Translations under genes and position numbers: made by a program
The notes under the pieces: generated by a model
Seen by the model: the letters and a program-made list of their open reading frames with translations, nothing else
Told to the model about the DNA's origin: nothing
Databases searched by the model: none
Shown: piece after piece, positions 3 to 21,815 of the stretch
Position numbering within the stretch: position 1 is the stretch's first letter
How the letters are laid out: each line of letters begins with the position of its first letter
Assembly (NCBI GenBank): GCA_964565945.1
Contig: CAZMGY010000012.1
Coordinates: 60,001-92,000 of the forward strand
Length of the DNA stretch: 32,000 bases
From: an uncultured bacterium
GTDB lineage: Bacteria; GCA-001730085
Direction of reading: 5' to 3'

Positions 3-3000
3 ATGATTCTCGAAAAAGAATTCGGAGAGGGTGCGCGTGAGCGTTTAACCGCTCAGATGCTTGATGCTCAAGTGACATCGAATCCTTTGGAAATGCAACG
101 CTTAATGAAAGCCAGAGTTGTTTTTACCGCGACCGATTGCCTCAATTTTTTGGACTTGTCGGCGCGGAATCCGCACAAAGCTAAAGATTCCAATGCGATC
201 GCTTTGCGTGATGCTTTAGTTAAAGGTACCACGAGGATTGTGGATGAGATTCATAAATTTGTAACCCAGCAAAAGAGCTTTGTGACGGGAACGGATGCTG
301 GTGAAGTGGCTGTGGGTGTGCGCGATGCTAAATTAGCACATTACATTACGGAACAAGCTTTGAACTTGATTCAGGAAAAACTAGGCAAGGGCGAAGCTAT
401 CTATAATTCTCAAGGAGGTTTTGCCTCAGGTGCAGAGAAGGTTTTACTTGGGAAACGAATGGGGCAGGGTGTTTTACGCTTTAATCCTGAACGTGTTGGA
501 AATACGGATGTGGCTTTTAGTGCTGCTTTTAAAGTGGAGTTATTGCGGAGGTTGCAAACCAGTCGATTGGATGGGTTTAACTTGAGCAGTCAGGCCGCAA
601 AGCTTATGGATCGTTTTGGTGGCCGTGGTGAAAAAGAATTAGCGAATCGCTTGAAGACTCTTTACAAGGTGGGTGAACACGATGTTTATTCGGCACCTCA
701 GTTTGTTTTCCATTATTTGGATCATTTGGCGCAGTCCTTTTCGGGACGGACGCGTGTGAAGGAGTTGCAAAACCGTTATGGTCCCAACCAGGCTTATGAG
801 GTTTTATTGGATTCGAAAAGCAAAATGATTGAACGTGATGAGCATGGTGTGCCTCGGGTTGTTCCGATGAGTGGTGGGGAAAAACAAGTTAGCCAGAAAT
901 ACTCGAATCGTGAACATGTTCTATCGATCTATTATTCAACGCTGGCTCAGCATATGTTTCAAGATGGTCGTTTTACGGGCAGTTGGAAGAAATCTTTGAT
1001 TCAGGATGCTAGTCGCATTAAATTACAGCCTGATTCCTATCGCTTGAAGTTAAGCGATCACTTAGAGATGGCCACACGCGCTGGTCGTGTGCTGGGTTTT
1101 TCTGGATCGGTGGTAGGTTCTCAGCAGGCGTTTGAGTTTATGATGGGGATGAAAGTTTGGACCTCCCAAAGAGCCGAATATAAATTGGCTGGTGATACCG
1201 TCGGTAAGTACGTAATTGATCCGATGATGCGTTTGCATCAGAACGAAGTGAGTCAAATTGATAGCCACGGTATGCGAGAAAAGTTTGAAAAAGCCTTAAC
1301 CGAAGGTGCCACTGTAACCCCACAGTATCGTCAAATGATTGAGAAACGCTTGAAAGAGCGCTTACGTTTCGAAAAAGAAAGTCGAATGGAATTAGCTCAA
1401 ATCGAAGGACTACTTAAGGAAGTTCCTAAGATTAAAGATGCTTTGTGGCTTCGTGAAAAAACATCAAGCTCAGAAGGCAAAGAGGCGATTCGTCCTGGTA
1501 GCACGAATCCTTTAACCCAACGTTTATTTAATGAGGCGCTGAGACATCAAAAAATCTATGATTTATCTGCCAAGCAGGTTAATGAAGGCTATTTGAAGGA
1601 TCGTACCATCAATCATGACAAGTTGTCGCCGCAGGATCGTTCGGCAAACTATGAAGTGATCAAAAATGAAATTGTGGCCGAAGCTAGCTATTTAAGAGCT
1701 AAGCATGAGCAAGCTTTGCGTCATCAAGCCGAAATGGAAAAAGGTACCCCTCTTACTAAGCGAGAGCTTGAAACACTTCGCGAAAAAGTGATGAGCATCG
1801 AAGAGACGCGCCAGTTGGCATCGCGTTTGATTGAGCTCAAAACTCAAGGGGATGTGTTAGGGCGTCATATTGTCAAGCAGATAATTGGTGACGGGTATGT
1901 GGCTCTTAAGGAAAAAGGTATTACGGCCGAAAAACTGATGGAGAGGCTTGAAATCCAAGTCCAGAACATGATTACAAAGACGCTGAAAAAGATCCCTACC
2001 GACTCTTCGATAGAGGGTCATCACGCTCTCGTGGTGGATTATACGGTTTCAACCCGAATGGAAAATCTACATACTCTGCTCGAGGAAGCGGCTAAGGCCA
2101 ACAAAGATGTGATTGTTAAGGATTTGACTGGAGAATGGCGTTTGTTCTTGCATAAAGAAAAACAAAATTGGGTTAATCGTGAAACAGGTCAGATTGAATT
2201 TTCACGTACTTTGCGCTTCGATCAAGATATGGCCAAGTCGTTGCTTGATAAAGGTAAAACAGAGGTTCCTGCCGAATTTGTGGCCGAGATACAAGCCCGT
2301 GGTCTAAAACTAACCCAGGGTAGAAAAGGTGAAATGCTATTGTACCGCAACGGTAGCGAACCTGGTCAGTTGAATGTAGATATTGGAGCTGTTTATTTAT
2401 TCCCCGCGGGTGCGACGGGAACCAACTTGGAGATGAAAGCGAGTGGAAAATTTCGCCAAAAAATCATTAAGATTTTTGATCGTCAGATGCTCGAGAAAGA
2501 GTTTCAACAAGGTTTGGGTCGTGATCGCGGAGTGCGTGTTGAACCTGTGGACGGTGTGGGTTTTAAATTGCCATCGGAGCGTCACGTTTACTTTATGTCG
2601 CCCGAAGGTAAATACCAGTATGAAGGGGTGAAGGGGCAGGTGAAAACGGGTAATATGTTGCACAGCAATGGAACGGTTGATTTGCATCAGCTGTTTCATA
2701 TGCTTCGCACCAACCAAGAAGTGAATACTAAAGTACAAAACTTTCGTCAGGCCAGTGAAGCTTTGTATGAACCGCATAATCGGGTGGTTTCAGAAGTGTT
2801 GCGCTTAATTCGTCCTCATGAAGAACAATTGTTCCATGTGAAAAAATTGCTTAAAGATCACTTGAAAAACATTCAGAACGAAAAGCGCGAAGCCTTTCGT
2901 GTTTCCCTTTTGGAGACTAAGAGTACAACTCTCGTTTTGCAAGATATGGCGCGTAAAGCTAACAATCAAATGATTAAGTTGCTTGATGCTCTCGAAGGGA

Positions 3001-6000
3001 AGGGCCTAAAAATGAATTTTGCCAATCTTATGGGACAGGGAGAAGTGTTGTCAGCGATTAATCGCATGCCAGCCAACCGCACCTTCAACCTTCTTCGCAG
3101 TGATGTGAAGGAGCTTTTGCAAACGCATCGAGATGGTTTAAAAGGCGACTTGCGTTTTGCTGATATTAGTCGCGCTGTACCTGAAGGTGGTTTGATGAAT
3201 GCGAAAACAATGGCTGATGTGATTAATGTGATTAGCAGTTTGGGTCGCGATGCTTTATTGGCTAAAACTAGCCAACGGACGTATTCGGGTGAAATTTCGC
3301 GTCAAACAGTTTCGGCCAAATCGATGTCTGGTTTGGCTGAAAATGCTTACAAACGATTGCGTTCTGATGGTGCTATTAGTCAGAAACAATGGCAACTGGC
3401 TCAAAATCGAGCCAAAACCAAGATGATGAAGTTACATCGCTATAGCAAAGTTCGCAAACGTTTGCGTTTGGACGAAGCGAACCGTAGCGATGGTGTTAAG
3501 TCCAATAGTTTCTTCAAACGGATGTGGAATTATCGTTCAAACCAAGAGAAACGTAAGCCTGTCTATGCTCAGTGGAATGTTGAGACGCGTGATGAGCAGT
3601 TTGAAAAAGTGATGAAGTCTGACGCTCTCTTGCGCAGTGAGTACATGGTGGAAACCATGAATGCATTGTTTGCCCAACCCGACGTCGCAATTGAAAAACG
3701 TTATCGTGAAGCTCTCGATAAAGTCGTTAAAACTTTTGGTGCCAAAAGTTGGCGCCCCGCAACTCCTAAGGTTTTGGATGCAGATTCCTTGTATAAACTC
3801 TACACTGAATACCATTTTTACAATAAAACGGCGTTGCTGATGCACGTGAAAGAGTTTGATTGGTTGCGTGAACTTTTTTTTGGAGAACTTAATGTGGATA
3901 ACGATACCGTTGTATTAGATGATGGCGTATCGGTTTTTGCTCACAAGGATATCACGGCGCAGTTAGAAAAAATGGTCACAGACGAGCTTAGTCCGTTGCA
4001 CCAAGCGATCCAAGCGAAACATGCTTCGGATAATGCTGTTAGGGTTCAGCAAGTGACGCTTAATTCGCGTTGGACTGGCGAACAAAGCGATCAACTGATT
4101 CATGTCTCTGTCCAGTTTTCTGATGAATTGACGGGGGATAGTTACCAAGAGGATGTGACCTTTGTTTATCGCAATTACAAAAGGTTCCTGTGGCAGCTCC
4201 CAAATCATCGGCAACTTGTCACAGTGGCCGATTATTTGGGAGCTGCCACAGGAACCTTTAATGAAAACAAGGTGTTGAAGCTGGGTGAGCTTGCTGGACG
4301 TGAAGTACTTCGTAAGATGAATACTCGCATACGTACTGAACTAGAAGCAGAACAATCTTTTAAAATATTCATTCAAAAAGCTTATCAAGATGGTTTGGAT
4401 TTGGCCAAAGAGGTTGGCTTGCAGGATGAGTTGCTGCAGCGATTCTTGGAAGAATATCAAAAGGGCCTTGCTGGGACAGCACCCAATGCTTCATTAAGAG
4501 CTCGTTTGACCCAGTTGGGTACTTCTGAACACAGGGGGGCTAACTTTGTGCGCCACTTTATAGTGCTGGATCAATTGGTGCAAAAGATTGAGAAAGCTGG
4601 TGTTTTCAAAAAAGGTTCTTTGGATCGTTCCAAATTACGTCAGAAGATACTGAGTGCTCAGGTGAGCGTTCTAAAGCATGCTCGAAGCGACGCAGATGAT
4701 AAACAACCAAAAGCTACGGATAAGGTTGAAGAAACCTTATCCCTAAGGCAGGCGGTGCTTAAACTTCAGCAAGAGCCAGGCAATGCTCGTTTGGAGGTCG
4801 CTATTAACGAAAGGCTCAAATTACTTGTGGAAAGCGAGCTGAAGGTTCAAACGCGTCAACGAGCTGATTTCTCTCAGAAAGCTTTGACATCCTATGCACC
4901 ATCGGCCAAGTGGTATGCACGCTTTTTCCGTTGGAGTATTCGCCGCTCGCCGATGAGTGACAAAGATATTAAAGCGGCTGTTAAAGAAATTGATGCCAAA
5001 GATTGGGTCAGAGATGTGATTAAAGAGGTGGTGAAAACCACAGGTGTTAATCGTGTCGGAGATATTCTGCAGTCTGGTGATAAAATCGATCCTCATTTTG
5101 AAGACAAAAAAGACTTTAAGTTGAGAGAAGTTGCAGCTCAATCTTTGAGTTGGTTGCAAGAGCGTCGTAAACAAGAGGCTGGTATAGATCTGAATGCCAT
5201 GGGCGGTTTGGGTGGATTCCCTGGAATGGATTTTGGATCGATGGCGGGTGGCCAGGAAACGGGTGAACTTGTGATTGATCTTAAACAGCTAGCTGCAGAA
5301 ATGGGTATGAATCAGCAGGAGTTGCAGAACAAACTTCACGAAGTTATCTTGGGTACCAAGGAGGCGGGTGTGCGTTTGGAGCAAACACGCCTATGGCAAC
5401 AACGCTATCTAACAGTTAAAATGTACAAAGAATGGAAAGCGATTATCTTGTATTTGGCACAACAGTCTCAATCGGATGCAACCATGATGGATAAGCTGCG
5501 ACCCTTGTTGGAAGATATCTATGTGCATGATCGTGACAATATCATTGAATCTGGTCAAGCGTCGGTGTCACCGTTGGCCAATATGAAAACTTTAGAAGAA
5601 GTTCAAAAACACTGGTTTGAGATGAAAGAGAAGGACTACGAATTGCGTGATAAGAAAGCCAAGTTGACCCAATTGGAAGAAGATCTTAAACCTCTTTTGC
5701 CTAAAACGGAGACCCAGCAAGATGGAGATAATCTGGATTCCTCTCAAGCCGTTAAGCTTACTGAAGAACAAGAAACGAAGAAAAAGTCGCTCGAAGAACA
5801 AACAGCTAAGTTTAAAGAAGAGATTGCTAAGCTTGAAGAATCGCTTGCTGTCCTTGGAGATCAGATGGATAAGAAGCTTCGTTTAGGAGTGTTTGCTGAC
5901 CTTTATCGCGAGTTGATGGGAATTCATGGCTTGTTGGAGAAACGCTCGGAGACGGGGCAGTTAGATGCCATTGGCCAAAAGTTTACAGAAAAAATGCAAC

Positions 6001-7145
6001 AATTGTCCCAGGAAGCTGGTGAAGACGAAGGTTTGAGTGAAAAAATCACAGTTATCGACGAATTGCTTGAGAAAAAGGAAGAGTCTGATATTCAAAAACT
6101 CAATAAAGATCTTGTCGATGTGTTGCAGCGTCAAGATTTTGATGATCAGCGTGATTCCGAACGAGCTCAGGCCGATGAGGCTTTGGATGAAGTAAGCTAC
6201 CGTCAACTTTTCCCTGAAGAAACGTATCAAGCTAAAGGGGAGGAAAAACAGCAGACGGTGGCTATTGATCAGTTACGTCAACCAATGTCAGAATCATCCG
6301 ATCTATTGGCCACAGGCACAGATGACTTAAATTTGCATGAGGCTTCTACCTTAAATGGATCGATCGAAGGAACACTTACCATTTTACGCCCTGGTCGAGT
6401 GGGTAATGTGCCCCAGGCTCAAGCCACTTTGAGTCGTCTTACAGGAGATCTTAGAGCTTTAGTGTTGCCCGCAACTGAAGGTGTGGCGGATGTTAATGTC
6501 ACTAACCCTGTTGACTTACAATCGGTGGCAGTTAAGGTACCAGGATTTTTGACCTATGTGCAAGAACGCTTGGCTGGGAAAGGGCAACATAGGCCTCTTG
6601 AAATTATTGTGGATGAGAAGGTTACGGGACGAAGCAACGAGCTTCGTAGTGCGAATAATAAAGATGTGATTGCTTTTAATCCTTACTTTGTTCAAAATTA
6701 TCCTAACCTTGTGGCGGTTGAAATCTTTCACGAAGTAGCACATGCCTTTACTCACGATGTTCTGGGAGAGACTTTTCATCATGATGCGAACGTGTTTGAT
6801 GACAAGCGTGGCTTGATTGAAGCGGCCGTTTACAAACTGCAATACGTGGCGCTGGCGGCTTTCCTTAAGTATCCAGAATTACTTAAAGTGGCTGAAGCCT
6901 ATAAGCAGTTGCTTCAACAAGATTACACATTGGCTATCAGGGGTGATGAACTTGAAGGCAAGGAGGTGAGGGACGTCTTTGCCTTTGGTGACCCTTTTGA
7001 TCAATTTATTCAACGGATCTATCACTCTGCATTGGACGGACGAGGGGAAGCCACCTTTATTGGGTTACCCGCTGTCGTTGAGCATATTACTCGCGACTTG
7101 AGTCAAGTGATGGAATACCAAGCCAAGCTTGTGGTGGCGACTTAA
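3..7145 (+). CDS. Giant multidomain protein, 5'-truncated by the window edge (at least 2380 aa): SecA/SF2-like NTPase motor motifs, long helical/coiled-coil body, C-terminal HExxH zincin-like module
   Basis: One uninterrupted ORF runs from the window edge to TAA at 7143-7145, with no start codon in view. 2380 stop-free codons is far beyond chance, and the antisense ORFs inside it are all short. Motifs read from the translation: VDEIH (nt 240-254), LGFSGS..AFEF (nt 1092-1139), AGATGT (nt 2406-2423), Gly-rich linker GGLGGFPGMDFGSMAGG (about nt 5201-5265), E/K/Q-rich coiled-coil-like stretch (about nt 5580-6250), HEVAH (nt 6729-6743). Confidence 0.85.
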   Translation: MILEKEFGEGARERLTAQMLDAQVTSNPLEMQRLMKARVVFTATDCLNFLDLSARNPHKAKDSNAIALRDALVKGTTRIVDEIHKFVTQQKSFVTGTDAGEVAVGVRDAKLAHYITEQALNLIQEKLGKGEAIYNSQGGFASGAEKVLLGKRMGQGVLRFNPERVGNTDVAFSAAFKVELLRRLQTSRLDGFNLSSQAAKLMDRFGGRGEKELANRLKTLYKVGEHDVYSAPQFVFHYLDHLAQSFSGRTRVKELQNRYGPNQAYEVLLDSKSKMIERDEHGVPRVVPMSGGEKQVSQKYSNREHVLSIYYSTLAQHMFQDGRFTGSWKKSLIQDASRIKLQPDSYRLKLSDHLEMATRAGRVLGFSGSVVGSQQAFEFMMGMKVWTSQRAEYKLAGDTVGKYVIDPMMRLHQNEVSQIDSHGMREKFEKALTEGATVTPQYRQMIEKRLKERLRFEKESRMELAQIEGLLKEVPKIKDALWLREKTSSSEGKEAIRPGSTNPLTQRLFNEALRHQKIYDLSAKQVNEGYLKDRTINHDKLSPQDRSANYEVIKNEIVAEASYLRAKHEQALRHQAEMEKGTPLTKRELETLREKVMSIEETRQLASRLIELKTQGDVLGRHIVKQIIGDGYVALKEKGITAEKLMERLEIQVQNMITKTLKKIPTDSSIEGHHALVVDYTVSTRMENLHTLLEEAAKANKDVIVKDLTGEWRLFLHKEKQNWVNRETGQIEFSRTLRFDQDMAKSLLDKGKTEVPAEFVAEIQARGLKLTQGRKGEMLLYRNGSEPGQLNVDIGAVYLFPAGATGTNLEMKASGKFRQKIIKIFDRQMLEKEFQQGLGRDRGVRVEPVDGVGFKLPSERHVYFMSPEGKYQYEGVKGQVKTGNMLHSNGTVDLHQLFHMLRTNQEVNTKVQNFRQASEALYEPHNRVVSEVLRLIRPHEEQLFHVKKLLKDHLKNIQNEKREAFRVSLLETKSTTLVLQDMARKANNQMIKLLDALEGKGLKMNFANLMGQGEVLSAINRMPANRTFNLLRSDVKELLQTHRDGLKGDLRFADISRAVPEGGLMNAKTMADVINVISSLGRDALLAKTSQRTYSGEISRQTVSAKSMSGLAENAYKRLRSDGAISQKQWQLAQNRAKTKMMKLHRYSKVRKRLRLDEANRSDGVKSNSFFKRMWNYRSNQEKRKPVYAQWNVETRDEQFEKVMKSDALLRSEYMVETMNALFAQPDVAIEKRYREALDKVVKTFGAKSWRPATPKVLDADSLYKLYTEYHFYNKTALLMHVKEFDWLRELFFGELNVDNDTVVLDDGVSVFAHKDITAQLEKMVTDELSPLHQAIQAKHASDNAVRVQQVTLNSRWTGEQSDQLIHVSVQFSDELTGDSYQEDVTFVYRNYKRFLWQLPNHRQLVTVADYLGAATGTFNENKVLKLGELAGREVLRKMNTRIRTELEAEQSFKIFIQKAYQDGLDLAKEVGLQDELLQRFLEEYQKGLAGTAPNASLRARLTQLGTSEHRGANFVRHFIVLDQLVQKIEKAGVFKKGSLDRSKLRQKILSAQVSVLKHARSDADDKQPKATDKVEETLSLRQAVLKLQQEPGNARLEVAINERLKLLVESELKVQTRQRADFSQKALTSYAPSAKWYARFFRWSIRRSPMSDKDIKAAVKEIDAKDWVRDVIKEVVKTTGVNRVGDILQSGDKIDPHFEDKKDFKLREVAAQSLSWLQERRKQEAGIDLNAMGGLGGFPGMDFGSMAGGQETGELVIDLKQLAAEMGMNQQELQNKLHEVILGTKEAGVRLEQTRLWQQRYLTVKMYKEWKAIILYLAQQSQSDATMMDKLRPLLEDIYVHDRDNIIESGQASVSPLANMKTLEEVQKHWFEMKEKDYELRDKKAKLTQLEEDLKPLLPKTETQQDGDNLDSSQAVKLTEEQETKKKSLEEQTAKFKEEIAKLEESLAVLGDQMDKKLRLGVFADLYRELMGIHGLLEKRSETGQLDAIGQKFTEKMQQLSQEAGEDEGLSEKITVIDELLEKKEESDIQKLNKDLVDVLQRQDFDDQRDSERAQADEALDEVSYRQLFPEETYQAKGEEKQQTVAIDQLRQPMSESSDLLATGTDDLNLHEASTLNGSIEGTLTILRPGRVGNVPQAQATLSRLTGDLRALVLPATEGVADVNVTNPVDLQSVAVKVPGFLTYVQERLAGKGQHRPLEIIVDEKVTGRSNELRSANNKDVIAFNPYFVQNYPNLVAVEIFHEVAHAFTHDVLGETFHHDANVFDDKRGLIEAAVYKLQYVALAAFLKYPELLKVAEAYKQLLQQDYTLAIRGDELEGKEVRDVFAFGDPFDQFIQRIYHSALDGRGEATFIGLPAVVEHITRDLSQVMEYQAKLVVAT

Positions 7146-7208
7146 TAAAAGTGTTTTCTGGGTTGGGGCTGGTTAACCTAGAATTGCTTGTTCCGGATGA
7201 GATTCCTA

Positions 7209-7245: not shown

Positions 7246-7689
7246 GTGAGTATCAATTGGCTTGATATTGTGATTTTGGTGATATTGTCGGCCGTGACTT
7301 ATTGGGGCTGGAAGGCTGGTTTGACTGGTGAAGTCTTTCGCTTTTTGGGGGTGATGGCAGCCTTGTTTTGTGCTTTTCGATTCACCCATGGTTTGGCTGA
7401 TGAATTGTATGGTTGGGTTAAGGTGCCGATTGTTTTTTTGCGATTATTTTCTTTTGTTTTGATTATGACCTTGGGCTACATCTTTGTGCAAGTCATGAAG
7501 CTAGCGATGCAAAAACATGAAAAATCGACCAATGTTTATGATTGTATTGAGCATTTTGGTGGTGCAGGCGTTGCTTTATTGAAAGGAAGCATTGCTATTT
7601 TTGTATTGTTGGTGTTACTTGGTTCGCTACCGTCACAAAAACTGAGTGGACAGATTAAACGCATCGCACACATTTGGCTTCGTGGATAA
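7246..7689 (+). CDS. cvpA: CvpA-family (colicin V production) integral membrane protein
   Basis: GTG start lies 4 nt after the SD AGGGGAG. The 147-aa product has several hydrophobic helices. The N-terminus MSINWLDIVILVILSAVTYWGWKAGLTGEV and the later GGAGVALLKGSIAIFVLLVLL block resemble the E. coli CvpA layout (N-terminal W.D..I...G...G..RE, later G..RG). Confidence 0.7.
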   Translation: MSINWLDIVILVILSAVTYWGWKAGLTGEVFRFLGVMAALFCAFRFTHGLADELYGWVKVPIVFLRLFSFVLIMTLGYIFVQVMKLAMQKHEKSTNVYDCIEHFGGAGVALLKGSIAIFVLLVLLGSLPSQKLSGQIKRIAHIWLRG

Positions 7690-12024: not shown

Positions 12025-13524
12025 GTGGTGATTTCGGACATATTCACTTATTTTGAGGGACAGGCTGTTCAACTGAACCGAGTTCTTTGTGTTGCGAGTG
12101 ATCTTTGTGATTTTAACGAGCTCACGGGAGAACATTTGTGGGAGCAGTTATCTCGCGATAAAATCTTTGGGCGAAATGTGATTCGCGATCTTTACTTTGG
12201 GGGGCGCAAGGGTTATGTACCCCGGTTGGTGGTGGATACTTACCGTAATATAATTAATCAAGCCCCGCAGGATATTCAAAAAGAACTGAATCGATTGTTC
12301 GAACAAAGAATTAATGAATTAGCATGGACCGATGCTTTGGCTGAATACTTTGAGCAACGTTGTTCCTATCAAGGATCCTGGTCGATTCAGAAAGTTCAAG
12401 ACTATAGCATAGGTGCAGGAGTTTATTGTTTGAGTTTTGACTTGATTGATGCAGGGCGAACGGTTGATTTGTTTTTGAAGCGAGAATTCAAAGAAGGTTT
12501 TACTCTTAAACATGAATCGTTTTATCACGGTTTGCAAGTTTACTTGATAAATAAGGATAAGAGGCATCCACAGCCTTTTTATTATGCACAAAATCAAGGT
12601 ACCGCTTTGTCGATTGCGAAGCGGTTTCCTGGAGTCTCTTCGGAGCTGTTCTTTTCCCAGTGGCTTACACAAGACACTGAAGCGCAAAGTCGTGTTATCC
12701 ACAATTTGCTGCTTTGTTTGGGGGAGCATGCGGCCTTAGGAGATGTTTTTGGGCGCAATGACCGCCATCTTGGCAACAGTCATGTGGCTTGGGATTCAGG
12801 ATCTGATGCGTTTTTATGGAATGATCGTGATAAGCATGATTTCTGTCTCGATATTAGGCAAAGTCAGCAACTTTGGATGATTGATTTTGATATACAGTAT
12901 TTGCTTAAGCGGGATAATTATGATTGGATGCTCGAAGATATCCGCCAAGGCTTAAGCGAAATGAATCTTTTTACGGTGTTGTGGCCGCATTTTCTTTATG
13001 AGTCGAACGATGAGGAACTCTTGAAAGTCATCGATGTGTTTCAACAAGCTTATGAAGGCTTGTTGCAGCAGATGTGCAGAGAAGAGGCTTTAGACTGGAT
13101 TGATCAATGGGCTCAAAATATTTATGGAACCTCCGAAGTCCGTTCGCTCAGACACTCTTTAAGTGATCAAATCGACTATCTCTGTTCGGCATCTTGGAAG
13201 AAGTCCCATTACAGGGCTCTTTTGGTTGATTACCGTTATCGCTACACTATTAAACTGATTTTGCAGGATCGTTTAGACCAAGGAAAGCTCGCTGGGGAAT
13301 TCTTGCGTTATGTGGTGGCTCCCGAGTTGAGGGGAGCGGCGTTGCATTTGGAGGCTTTTCGAGGGGTCAGTGGACACTCTTTTTTAGATCAGGCTTCATT
13401 GCAGGAAAGGATGAGCTGGGAAGTTCTGGAAGGAGAATTAGAGGTGTTCTTAGGACAAGAGTGTTGGCTAGAGGTGCAAAGGAAAAAACAAGGCTTCGAA
13501 GAACAATTTGCAAGGATGTTTTAA
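12025..13524 (+). CDS. Hypothetical protein with PI3/PI4-kinase-like (atypical kinase) catalytic motifs
   Basis: 499-aa ORF with a GTG start 3 nt after the tautomerase stop. Its TAA abuts the trpF ATG. The catalytic-loop-like sequence LGDVFGRNDRHLGNSHV (GRNDRHLGN is encoded by nt 12751-12777) matches the G-DRH..N signature. WMIDFD (IDFD at nt 12880-12891) matches the IDFG metal-binding motif of the PI3K/PI4K fold. A candidate ATP-binding Lys is in VDLFLKREF upstream. Confidence 0.55.
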   Translation: MVISDIFTYFEGQAVQLNRVLCVASDLCDFNELTGEHLWEQLSRDKIFGRNVIRDLYFGGRKGYVPRLVVDTYRNIINQAPQDIQKELNRLFEQRINELAWTDALAEYFEQRCSYQGSWSIQKVQDYSIGAGVYCLSFDLIDAGRTVDLFLKREFKEGFTLKHESFYHGLQVYLINKDKRHPQPFYYAQNQGTALSIAKRFPGVSSELFFSQWLTQDTEAQSRVIHNLLLCLGEHAALGDVFGRNDRHLGNSHVAWDSGSDAFLWNDRDKHDFCLDIRQSQQLWMIDFDIQYLLKRDNYDWMLEDIRQGLSEMNLFTVLWPHFLYESNDEELLKVIDVFQQAYEGLLQQMCREEALDWIDQWAQNIYGTSEVRSLRHSLSDQIDYLCSASWKKSHYRALLVDYRYRYTIKLILQDRLDQGKLAGEFLRYVVAPELRGAALHLEAFRGVSGHSFLDQASLQERMSWEVLEGELEVFLGQECWLEVQRKKQGFEEQFARMF

Positions 13525-21341: not shown

Positions 21342-21727
21342 ATGAGCAGCACCATTACACCGAACTCAGATTACAATCACTTGGATAAGCAGTATGAAGT
21401 TTTACTCTCCAGAGTTCTTGATAAAGCAGTTAGAGATGCTGGTGCTAAATTCATGAAAAAGTATGGCATGGTTGATGCCCGTGTATTTCGCATCATTTCT
21501 GAAAAAGAAATTATGGTCAACAGCTGTTCCGATTTTGGCGTTAATCTTGGTGACCGTCTGACCGTTTGGGAGGAAGGATCGGCTTTAACTGATCCTCATA
21601 CGGGATTGAAAATTTCACCTCGTGTCAAAAAAAAGGTATTCTTAAGATCACTCAAGTCTCTTCGGGGCTCGCTTCGGTGGCCAAAGGTAGCAAAAAGGTT
21701 GTTCGTACCATCCGTCAGGGGGACTAG
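21342..21727 (+). CDS. Hypothetical small protein whose plausible reading frame shifts by -1 at an A AAA AAG tract (frameshift, indel error or pseudogene)
   Basis: Zero frame 21342-21635 encodes 98 protein-like residues (..ARVFRIISEKEIMVNSCSDFGVNLGDRLTVWEEGSALTDPHTGLKISPRVKKK). After the A8 run (21627-21634) the zero frame turns R/L/S-rich and looks out of frame, continuing to 21764. The -1 frame reads GILKITQVSSGLASVAKGSKKVVRTIRQGD and stops at 21725-21727. There is no SD before the ATG at 21342, so the start, and even expression, are uncertain. Confidence 0.35.
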
Positions 21728-21815
21728 GTTACCGTTTAGTGGCTTGTTGAGATCTGTTGTATAGGATTTAGTGAGTATAGAAGTAATCTTCAGAATGCGG
21801 TATAATACTTTTCTT

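Follow-up and report, generated by a model that had tools for sequence, protein, structure and literature searches.

A 29 kb gene in an uncultured bacterium joins a superfamily 2-type NTPase signature to a conserved C-terminal HExxH module

The giant gene and its copies

The stretch of DNA analyzed here (hereafter the window) comprises 32,000 nucleotides (nt) from an uncultured bacterium, and it opens with the 3′ end of a giant gene that is the subject of this report. At 3..7145 on the + strand the window carries one frame of 2,380 codons whose translation meets no stop until the TAA at 7143-7145; with ~6% stops per random triplet, we estimate the chance of such a stop-free length at ~1e-66. 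A sequence-only reading of the window, made without database searches, had described a single giant open reading frame (ORF) with its start outside the window, and this description was right, the feature being about four times bigger than that reading had it. Public assemblies with the locus were found through exact matches to the product of cvpA (7246-7689), the gene that follows, and yielded contigs of six sequencing runs; the matching contigs fall in at least four SRA accession ranges (SRR120081xx, SRR199875xx, SRR232578xx and SRR306xxxxx). Gene calls on the contigs with the complete gene predict a product of 9,745 amino acids (aa) in three runs and of 9,735 aa in one, and two further contigs end inside the gene, giving 7,079 and 6,426 aa. 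The window holds the C-terminal 24% of the product, namely the last 2,380 codons and the stop of a ~29.2 kb gene. Locus L002, with 99.99% identity to the window, extends 2,755 nt further upstream, and over this whole length the frame has no stop. Across the loci the gene part in hand amounts to 9,900 nt, or the C-terminal 3,299 codons (the visible part below), with the N-terminal 6,446 aa (66%) lying outside it; residues are numbered below from the first codon in the window unless stated otherwise.

The gene is single-copy, its window part is intact in six independent assemblies, and over the 9,900 nt all six loci (6/6) show an open frame with a single terminal stop. The identity of the window to every matching contig is 99.93-100%, and the six copies compared differ by nine single-nucleotide polymorphisms in 9.9 kb (six synonymous and three non-synonymous) plus one in-frame indel of 30 nt. 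The latter concerns the ten-codon segment YKRFLWQLPN (4176..4205, +), which is present in the window and five other runs, is deleted in frame in the SRR12008134 contigs, and corresponds to a gap in the alignment with P0002, a distant relative introduced below. The deleted codons overlap an arm of a perfect 18-bp inverted repeat (4182-4199, AGGTTCCTGTGGCAGCTC, and 4240-4257). Comparison of these sequences points to one essentially clonal organism that recurs across sequencing projects. Because the same uninterrupted frame is seen in assemblies from six runs, the ORF is real and not the assembly chimera or interrupted frame that the sequence-only reading had allowed for. The architecture which that reading had proposed, a motor joined by a helical spacer to a zincin, applies to the last quarter only of the 9,745-aa protein.

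Two fragmentary relatives

Searches of Pfam, NCBIfam, PADLOC and PHROGs gave no above-threshold match to the visible protein, and PDB sequences gave no significant one; the sole library match was to Pfam DEAD, below threshold. The earlier claims that the protein belongs to no described family, and that more than 1,500 of its residues are without an assignable family, hold for every library searched. The full-length product has no Pfam match on record among precomputed matches that cover only part of the collection. A word-indexed database of 5.8 billion proteins gave no match to the whole window protein, the helicase region or a seeded alignment; since the protein itself and the two relatives described next were missing from the results as well, that database does not contain this family. 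Scans with the giant protein of species-representative genomes, and of JGI metagenome contigs and IMG/VR, gave no relative, and neither the motor region nor the final 1,435 aa matched anything by tblastn among 72,556 plasmids and 50,697 phages.

An exhaustive HMMER pass with window aa 1-1200 against 1.84 billion representative proteins gave two matches. The first, P0001, is a 138-aa fragment on a 600-nt ENA contig, with 45% identity over window aa 265-329, and the block shared with it reads ERDExG..R..PMSGGEKQV.QKYS. The second, P0002, is a 1,645-aa ORF from NCBI assembly GCA_024449705.1 (contig JAANSU011865502.1, 6.4 kb; locus L101) and is colinear at 22-24% identity with window aa ~946-2380, that is, the last ~1,435 aa; its best blocks are aa 946-1100 (33-40% identity) and the HExxH region (28-33%). 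In P0002 the module is a separate ORF, starting with an ATG at position 66 of L101 1-5003, and an in-frame TGA 6 nt upstream closes an ORF that runs off the contig. We rejected the 18 codons upstream of this start as continued homology from a split gene, the similarity being non-significant (p~0.1). The neighborhood of the giant gene is not conserved around P0002, whose convergent neighbor codes for a GspE/PilB-type secretion ATPase with an MshEN domain. Judged from these alignments, the giant protein and the two known fragments form a real, extremely sparse and undescribed family.

The C-terminal HExxH module

The zincin-like module that the sequence-only reading had placed at the end of the protein is present at aa ~2181-2380 (6543..7142, +), and is conserved in P0002, the only distant relative that covers it. 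It comprises a strand-like DVIAFNPYF, the HEVAH motif (aa 2243-2247, nt 6729-6743; 133 aa from the C-terminus), which is aligned with HEFSH in P0002, a glutamate in RGLIEAAV (nt 6807-6830) and the terminal KLVVAT. The glutamate lies 30 residues after the first histidine and is conserved in both members (RGLIEAAV and RGFVEGHV), which share the pattern IFHExxHA-x6-G-x2-F-x2-D-x3-FD-x2-RG-x2-E-x2-V-x2-L-x5-AAF. Zincin-like metallopeptidases have a core with HExxH on one helix and a glutamate on the next (PMC5512222). The Pfam SprT-like family gave a non-significant E of 0.15 and hhalign against Escherichia coli SprT a borderline P of 0.006 (probability 6%), and the two family members do not share the histidine that serves SprT as third ligand. 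An hhalign comparison with the ArdC protein of R388 was negative (P=0.23), and a profile search of PDB with the C-terminal module gave 0 matches. A gluzincin-type peptidase is the most economical reading, one that does not by itself assign the module to a named peptidase family.

The extreme C-terminus is also kept, with KLVVAT-stop (window 7125-7142) facing QLLVAT-stop in P0002 (L101 4983-5000). The conserved L-x-V-A-T suggests a recognition signal of some kind, and the terminal LVVAT resembles no sorting or secretion tag known to us.

The SF2-type motor signature

The sequence-only reading had placed a superfamily 2 (SF2)- or SecA-like NTPase motor near the start of the window and had suggested that the upstream contig be recovered for any Walker A motif. 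Such a motif is there: a Q-like motif, LPIQLEAV, and motif I, PTGFGKT, occur at aa 845-880 of L002 (SFLPIQLEAVLAMLSGGNLALQIPTGFGKT), ~40-75 codons upstream of window nt 1, motif I being ~45 codons away. Motif II (Walker B) is RIVDEIH at aa 78-84, with DEIH at aa 81-84 (243..254, +, by sequence reading); DEIH follows a hydrophobic strand and stands ~120 aa after GKT, a spacing that fits SF2 (~100-130 aa). A motif III-like SFVTGT (aa 92-97; 276..293, +), likewise read from the sequence, has no profile support. Pfam DEAD (PF00270) matches the Q/motif I segment with E=3.7e-5 and 24.0 bits against a gathering score of 26, over 60 of the 167 profile positions (2-61). Local SF2 hidden Markov models (HMMs), made from E. 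coli RhlE, RhlB, RecQ, Lhr and HrpB and the window's own Hel308-like helicase, match the same segment only (independent E-value, iE, 2.7e-5 in a one-sequence search), and phmmer with E. coli RhlB, RhlE and RecQ gives weak matches to it (iE 0.009-0.16). The top PDB matches, none of them significant, are MDA5, Hel308 and DDX52. Thus, the SF2 part of the earlier assignment stands through motifs Q/I and II, and its SecA part does not: none of the Pfam scans shows the SecA domains PF07517 and PF01043 at E<=10, and with an HMM of E. coli SecA the value is only iE >= 0.28.

The most conserved block of the motor region is aa 265-329 (795..989, +; core KMIERDEHGVPRVVPMSGGEKQVSQKYS), the part with 45% identity to P0001. 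It includes a PMSGGEKQ (window 822-905) that we considered as the LSGGE(K/Q) signature of ABC/SMC ATPases and dismissed as coincidence, no Walker B or D-loop following it. A candidate motif VI, LEMATRAGR (aa 354-362; 1062..1088, +), lies ~273 aa after DEIH and is paired by BLASTP with the QMAGRAGR of the window's Hel308-like helicase at E=0.29, with Pfam and the local HMMs silent. Weaker candidates for motifs V/VI, AGATGTNLE ... IIKIFDRQMLEKEFQQGLGRDRG (aa 802-843; 2406..2531, +), were found by eye and include a second possible motif VI, QQGLGRDRG (aa 835-843), where phmmer against PDB shows no helicase. A placement of lobe 2 at aa 675-850, after a 560-aa insertion, was downgraded on account of the equally good motif VI candidate at aa 354-362, neither of the two being supported by a profile. 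The region displays the signature of an SF2-type lobe 1, and a complete, active motor is something we only infer from it.

The sequence between the motor and the C-terminus

The best-conserved block after the motor, with 33-40% identity to P0002, spans aa 946-1100 (2838..3302, +) and contains GGLMNAKTM at aa 1062-1070. It is followed by a strongly basic segment at aa 1117-1156 (3351..3470, +), part of a patch that reaches to about aa 1185 and has a net charge of +15 over the 60 aa from aa 1126. The Gly-rich linker noted in the sequence-only reading was located at aa 1733-1754 (5199..5264, +; MGGLGGFPGMDFGSMAGGQETG), by reading of the sequence, and is absent from P0002. The most acidic stretch, with a net charge of -14 per 60 aa, precedes the terminal module at aa 2004-2063 (6012..6191, +). 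Self-BLASTP of the 3,299 aa gives the identity match only at E<=1e-3, i.e., no internal repeats. The composition favors helix; the "often heptad-like" spacer of the earlier description did not survive, in that the 3.5-residue periodicity barely exceeds block-shuffled controls, with 6.9% of 42-aa windows above the 95th percentile of the shuffles and five short segments above the 99th. The intervening sequence is therefore no coiled-coil spacer, and the blocks conserved with P0002 make a series of globular helical domains the likelier reading.

Cysteine avoidance and membrane-type features

Cysteine is nearly absent from the family: there is one in the 3,299 visible aa and there are two in the 1,645 aa of P0002, versus 99 in 7,322 aa (1.35%) for 17 neighboring proteins. 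At the rate of the neighbors, 3,299 aa should contain about 45, and our Poisson estimate for the observed count is P~1e-18. As the depletion is conserved across 24%-identical relatives, we take cysteine avoidance to be selected. Strong depletion of this kind is typical of proteins that are translocated unfolded or work outside the cytoplasm. P0002 has, at its aa 870-888, a transmembrane (TM)-like hydrophobic segment (WKLFFQILLLGIPLLTALI; Kyte-Doolittle 1.92) between W/R-rich interfacial stretches; the aligned part of the window protein, aa ~1640-1660, has only a W/R/F-rich stretch (AKWYARFFRWSIRR).

Comparison with known systems

Giant bacterial proteins often pair a divergent DEAD-type motor near the C-terminus with peptidases, for which self-export and processing have been proposed (bioRxiv 10.1101/2023.11.21.568195). 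The giants of Omnitrophota and other lineages, including the Archaeovorin- and Dockerin-type proteins (West-Roberts et al., bioRxiv 10.1101/2023.11.21.568195), resemble the present protein in being encoded by one enormous, mostly unannotatable ORF, in having a divergent DEAD-type P-loop motor in the C-terminal part and a peptidase domain suggested to process the precursor, and in being hidden by fragmentation in ordinary assemblies. However, their motors are recognizable as SecA_DEAD with the SecA preprotein-binding domain, whereas SecA profiles fail here; they have many TM helices, whereas the visible 3,299 aa have none; their peptidases are of the C39 or S8 type rather than HExxH; and their glycosyl-hydrolase, transferase or dockerin domains were not detected in the visible part. 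They also exceed 30k aa as against 9.7k aa, and no sequence similarity to them was found.

The polyvalent proteins of phages and conjugative elements (Iyer et al. 2017, PMC5512222) likewise join many unrelated modules in one polypeptide, and frequently pair an SF2 (SWI2/SNF2) ATPase with a zincin-like metallopeptidase for which autoprocessing has been proposed, again a likeness to the giant. The latter differs in its chromosomal housekeeping context and native composition, has no ArdC-N, methylase, LPD or other signature domains, is without matches in plasmid, phage and viral collections, and shows no similarity to R388 ArdC by hhalign. Among smaller proteins, the minimal zincins of the SprT-like/WLM kind share a local strand, a loop and then h-h-H-E-x-x-H-x, and SprT-like is the only peptidase family with any signal, at scores far below significance; unlike in those proteins, the third histidine ligand is not kept here, a glutamate 30 residues downstream being kept instead, and the module ends a 9.7k-aa protein. 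With the Ski2/Hel308/DEAD-like SF2 helicases the giant shares a Q-like motif, PTGxGKT and DExH at normal spacing, and possibly a counterpart of their QMxGRAGR-like motif VI (the candidate LEMATRAGR), but DEAD scores below gathering, there is no Helicase_C, and none of the accessory domains of those families is found. Repetitive giant adhesins and RTX-type proteins have tandem repeats and long coiled-coil proteins have sustained heptads, in contrast to the 3,299 aa seen here, where neither is found. Thus, the design logic of the giant is like that of giant and polyvalent proteins, and by sequence and domain comparison it belongs to neither.

A possible self-processing giant and the alternatives

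We tentatively favor, as possible rather than probable, the reading that this is a polyprotein-like giant, exported or associated with the envelope or an interface, that carries its own NTPase and a C-terminal gluzincin-type peptidase. This reading rests on the conserved catalytic signatures, the avoidance of cysteine, the membrane-type features of P0002 and the precedent of giants with a motor and a peptidase. Under it, a non-repetitive, mostly helical, multi-module protein of ~9,745 aa, founding a sparse family with the two fragments, would be made as one polypeptide and leave the reducing cytoplasm or work at the envelope or at a host/prey interface. The embedded, highly diverged SF2-type NTPase (~residues 7,290-7,450 of 9,745) would supply mechanical work, either for the handling of the protein itself or on a nucleic-acid or protein substrate. 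The C-terminal HExxH...E would then be a minimal gluzincin-type metallopeptidase, which may cut the precursor into modules or act on target proteins. The logic is similar to that of self-exporting, self-processing giants and of polyprotein toxins, to which no sequence relationship was detected. Rather more doubtfully, the protein could be the founding full-length member of an unrecognized family of ~10,000-residue, cysteine-free, non-repetitive polyproteins that would have a diverged SF2 motor and a terminal gluzincin of their own, handle and process themselves, and act at a host, prey or envelope interface, a mechanistic class independent of the SecA-bearing Omnitrophota giants, the polyvalent proteins and the RTX/adhesin giants; with the same reserve, such a family may have stayed hidden since ordinary assemblies shatter the gene, the relatives found being fragments of 138 and 1,645 aa.

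Several results weigh against the exported-giant reading. The visible 3,299 aa have no signal peptide, TM helix or secretion-system domain (the maximal 19-residue Kyte-Doolittle value is 1.46), and no secretion genes adjoin the giant gene on its downstream side, where cvpA, dnaG and rpoD lie. For the second RecA lobe (PF00271, motifs IV-VI) no Helicase_C was obtained at E<=10 on dedicated tiles, nor with the unfiltered local HMMs, and given this undetected lobe the NTPase may be incomplete or inactive. Pfam, PDB, Foldseek and hhalign gave no significant match to any peptidase family. Single-sequence AlphaFold2 models were unusable for aa 98-400 (predicted local distance difference test score, pLDDT, 35) and for the C-terminal 270 aa (pLDDT 46); the latter model has two strands, the HExxH helix and then a Glu-bearing helix, and its Foldseek search against PDB returned noise (best E 0.58).

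It is conceivable, if unlikely, that the protein is instead a cytoplasmic nucleic-acid machine or scaffold, i.e., a giant helicase-like remodeller with an SprT/Wss1-type protease directed at DNA- or RNA-bound proteins. SF2 motifs I and II, the basic segment at aa 1117-1185, with its net charge of +15 per 60 aa, and the lack of a TM segment or signal in the visible 3,299 aa would suit such a role, as would the neighboring dnaG and rpoD and, later on, addAB; the best peptidase likeness, though non-significant, is also SprT-like (Pfam E=0.15; hhalign P=0.006). However, the extreme and conserved depletion of cysteine has no obvious rationale in a cytoplasmic enzyme, the Pfam scans show no nucleic-acid-binding domain, the third-ligand histidine of SprT is not conserved in the two members, P0002 has a TM-like segment, and the gene neighborhood is not kept in P0002. 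We give an equally small share to a mainly structural giant (cytoskeletal, envelope-spanning or matrix), in which the NTPase and HExxH motifs would be relics or non-catalytic. About 95% of the visible sequence is indeed without a catalytic signature, its composition favors helix and lobe 2 of the motor is undetectable; against this, the exact H-E-x-x-H with its glutamate and motifs I and II are kept in a family of 22-24% identity, which argues for catalytic constraint, and there are none of the repeats or long coiled coils that structural giants usually show.

An SF2 ATPase that shares one huge polypeptide with a zincin-like peptidase and numerous uncharacterized domains is the hallmark of polyvalent proteins (PMC5512222). 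The giant could accordingly be a polyvalent protein or a toxin that an integrated phage or conjugative element delivers along with its DNA and that its own zincin processes. This origin is nonetheless improbable: tblastn found nothing in either the 72,556 plasmids or the 50,697 phages, IMG/VR, PHROGs and PADLOC gave nothing, similarity to ArdC is lacking (P=0.23), the GC content at third codon positions (GC3) equals that of the neighbors, and the downstream flank consists of core housekeeping genes. In addition, the largest polyvalent proteins known to us are only about half as long. Hardly any weight is left for an artefact, whether a chimera made in assembly, several genes fused in a row or a pseudogene in decay. 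That the unit can split is seen in P0002, where the C-terminal module is a separate ORF behind an in-frame TGA; yet the assemblies of six runs show the same frame without interruption, chance cannot yield 29 kb free of stops, the copies differ in length by a single in-frame indel of 30 nt, and the motifs are conserved with distant relatives. With 66% of the protein unseen, the probability left over goes to something else altogether.

Giant bacterial genes are an acknowledged blind spot, being fragmented by assembly and unseen by domain databases. The present one is a clean case, a 29 kb gene of native composition found whole in several independent datasets, all from an essentially clonal organism. 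Two catalytic-looking anchors, Walker A/B and HExxH...E, can be mutated, and the near-total avoidance of cysteine throughout the family points to an unusual cellular route. If motor and peptidase are both active, giants with their own motor plus their own protease would have had at least two origins, each drawing on other lineages of ATPase and peptidase, and ~9,000 residues without known homologues would become available for fold discovery. Giant unannotatable genes by themselves are no longer surprising; the isolation and composition of this one are very unusual.

Genomic context and composition

The giant gene has a GC content of 0.443 and a GC3 of 0.419, both inside the range of 17 neighboring genes; it is thus chromosomally native and does not look recently acquired. 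A stem-loop, a weak terminator-like site (7156..7183, +), lies 11 nt past its stop codon and ahead of cvpA. The genes that follow are cvpA, dnaG, rpoD, a 59-aa tautomerase and a 499-aa ORF without a family; then trpF, trpB, trpA, maf, dus, a BamD/YbgF-like TPR protein, lptE and holA; and further on rpsT (minus strand), a 140-aa ORF without a family, hflX, addB, addA and the Hel308/DSHCT helicase. Past the window end come SpoIID, queA, an FHA-GGDEF protein, a comEA-like gene, rpsO, pnp, bacA and ftsK. Here the sequence-only reading was borne out as to the housekeeping context (cvpA, dnaG, rpoD, trpFBA) and, by GC3, the native composition, and its absence of mobile-element boundaries is shown for the downstream side only. 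Rfam and tRNA scans of the window and its flanks were empty. RpoD passes the long proteobacterial-type model PRK05658, and the LptE and BamD encoded here indicate a diderm host.

Some further observations concern the neighboring genes. DnaG has matches of only 33-45% identity, almost all of them in Firmicutes. The 499-aa ORF (12025-13524) and the 140-aa ORF (21342-21764) have no Pfam or NCBIfam match and are called as genes in all assemblies. In locus L093 (15094-18315, 3-6 kb beyond the window), the Hel308-like helicase is followed by a SpoIID/LytB-domain protein, queA and a 300-aa FHA-GGDEF diguanylate cyclase; we take the architecture of the last to recall Bdellovibrio DgcB, a weak hint of lineage only. 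All genes of the window but rpsT lie on the + strand, and each 1-kb bin of the 32 kb has a positive GC skew, with values from +0.12 to +0.28.

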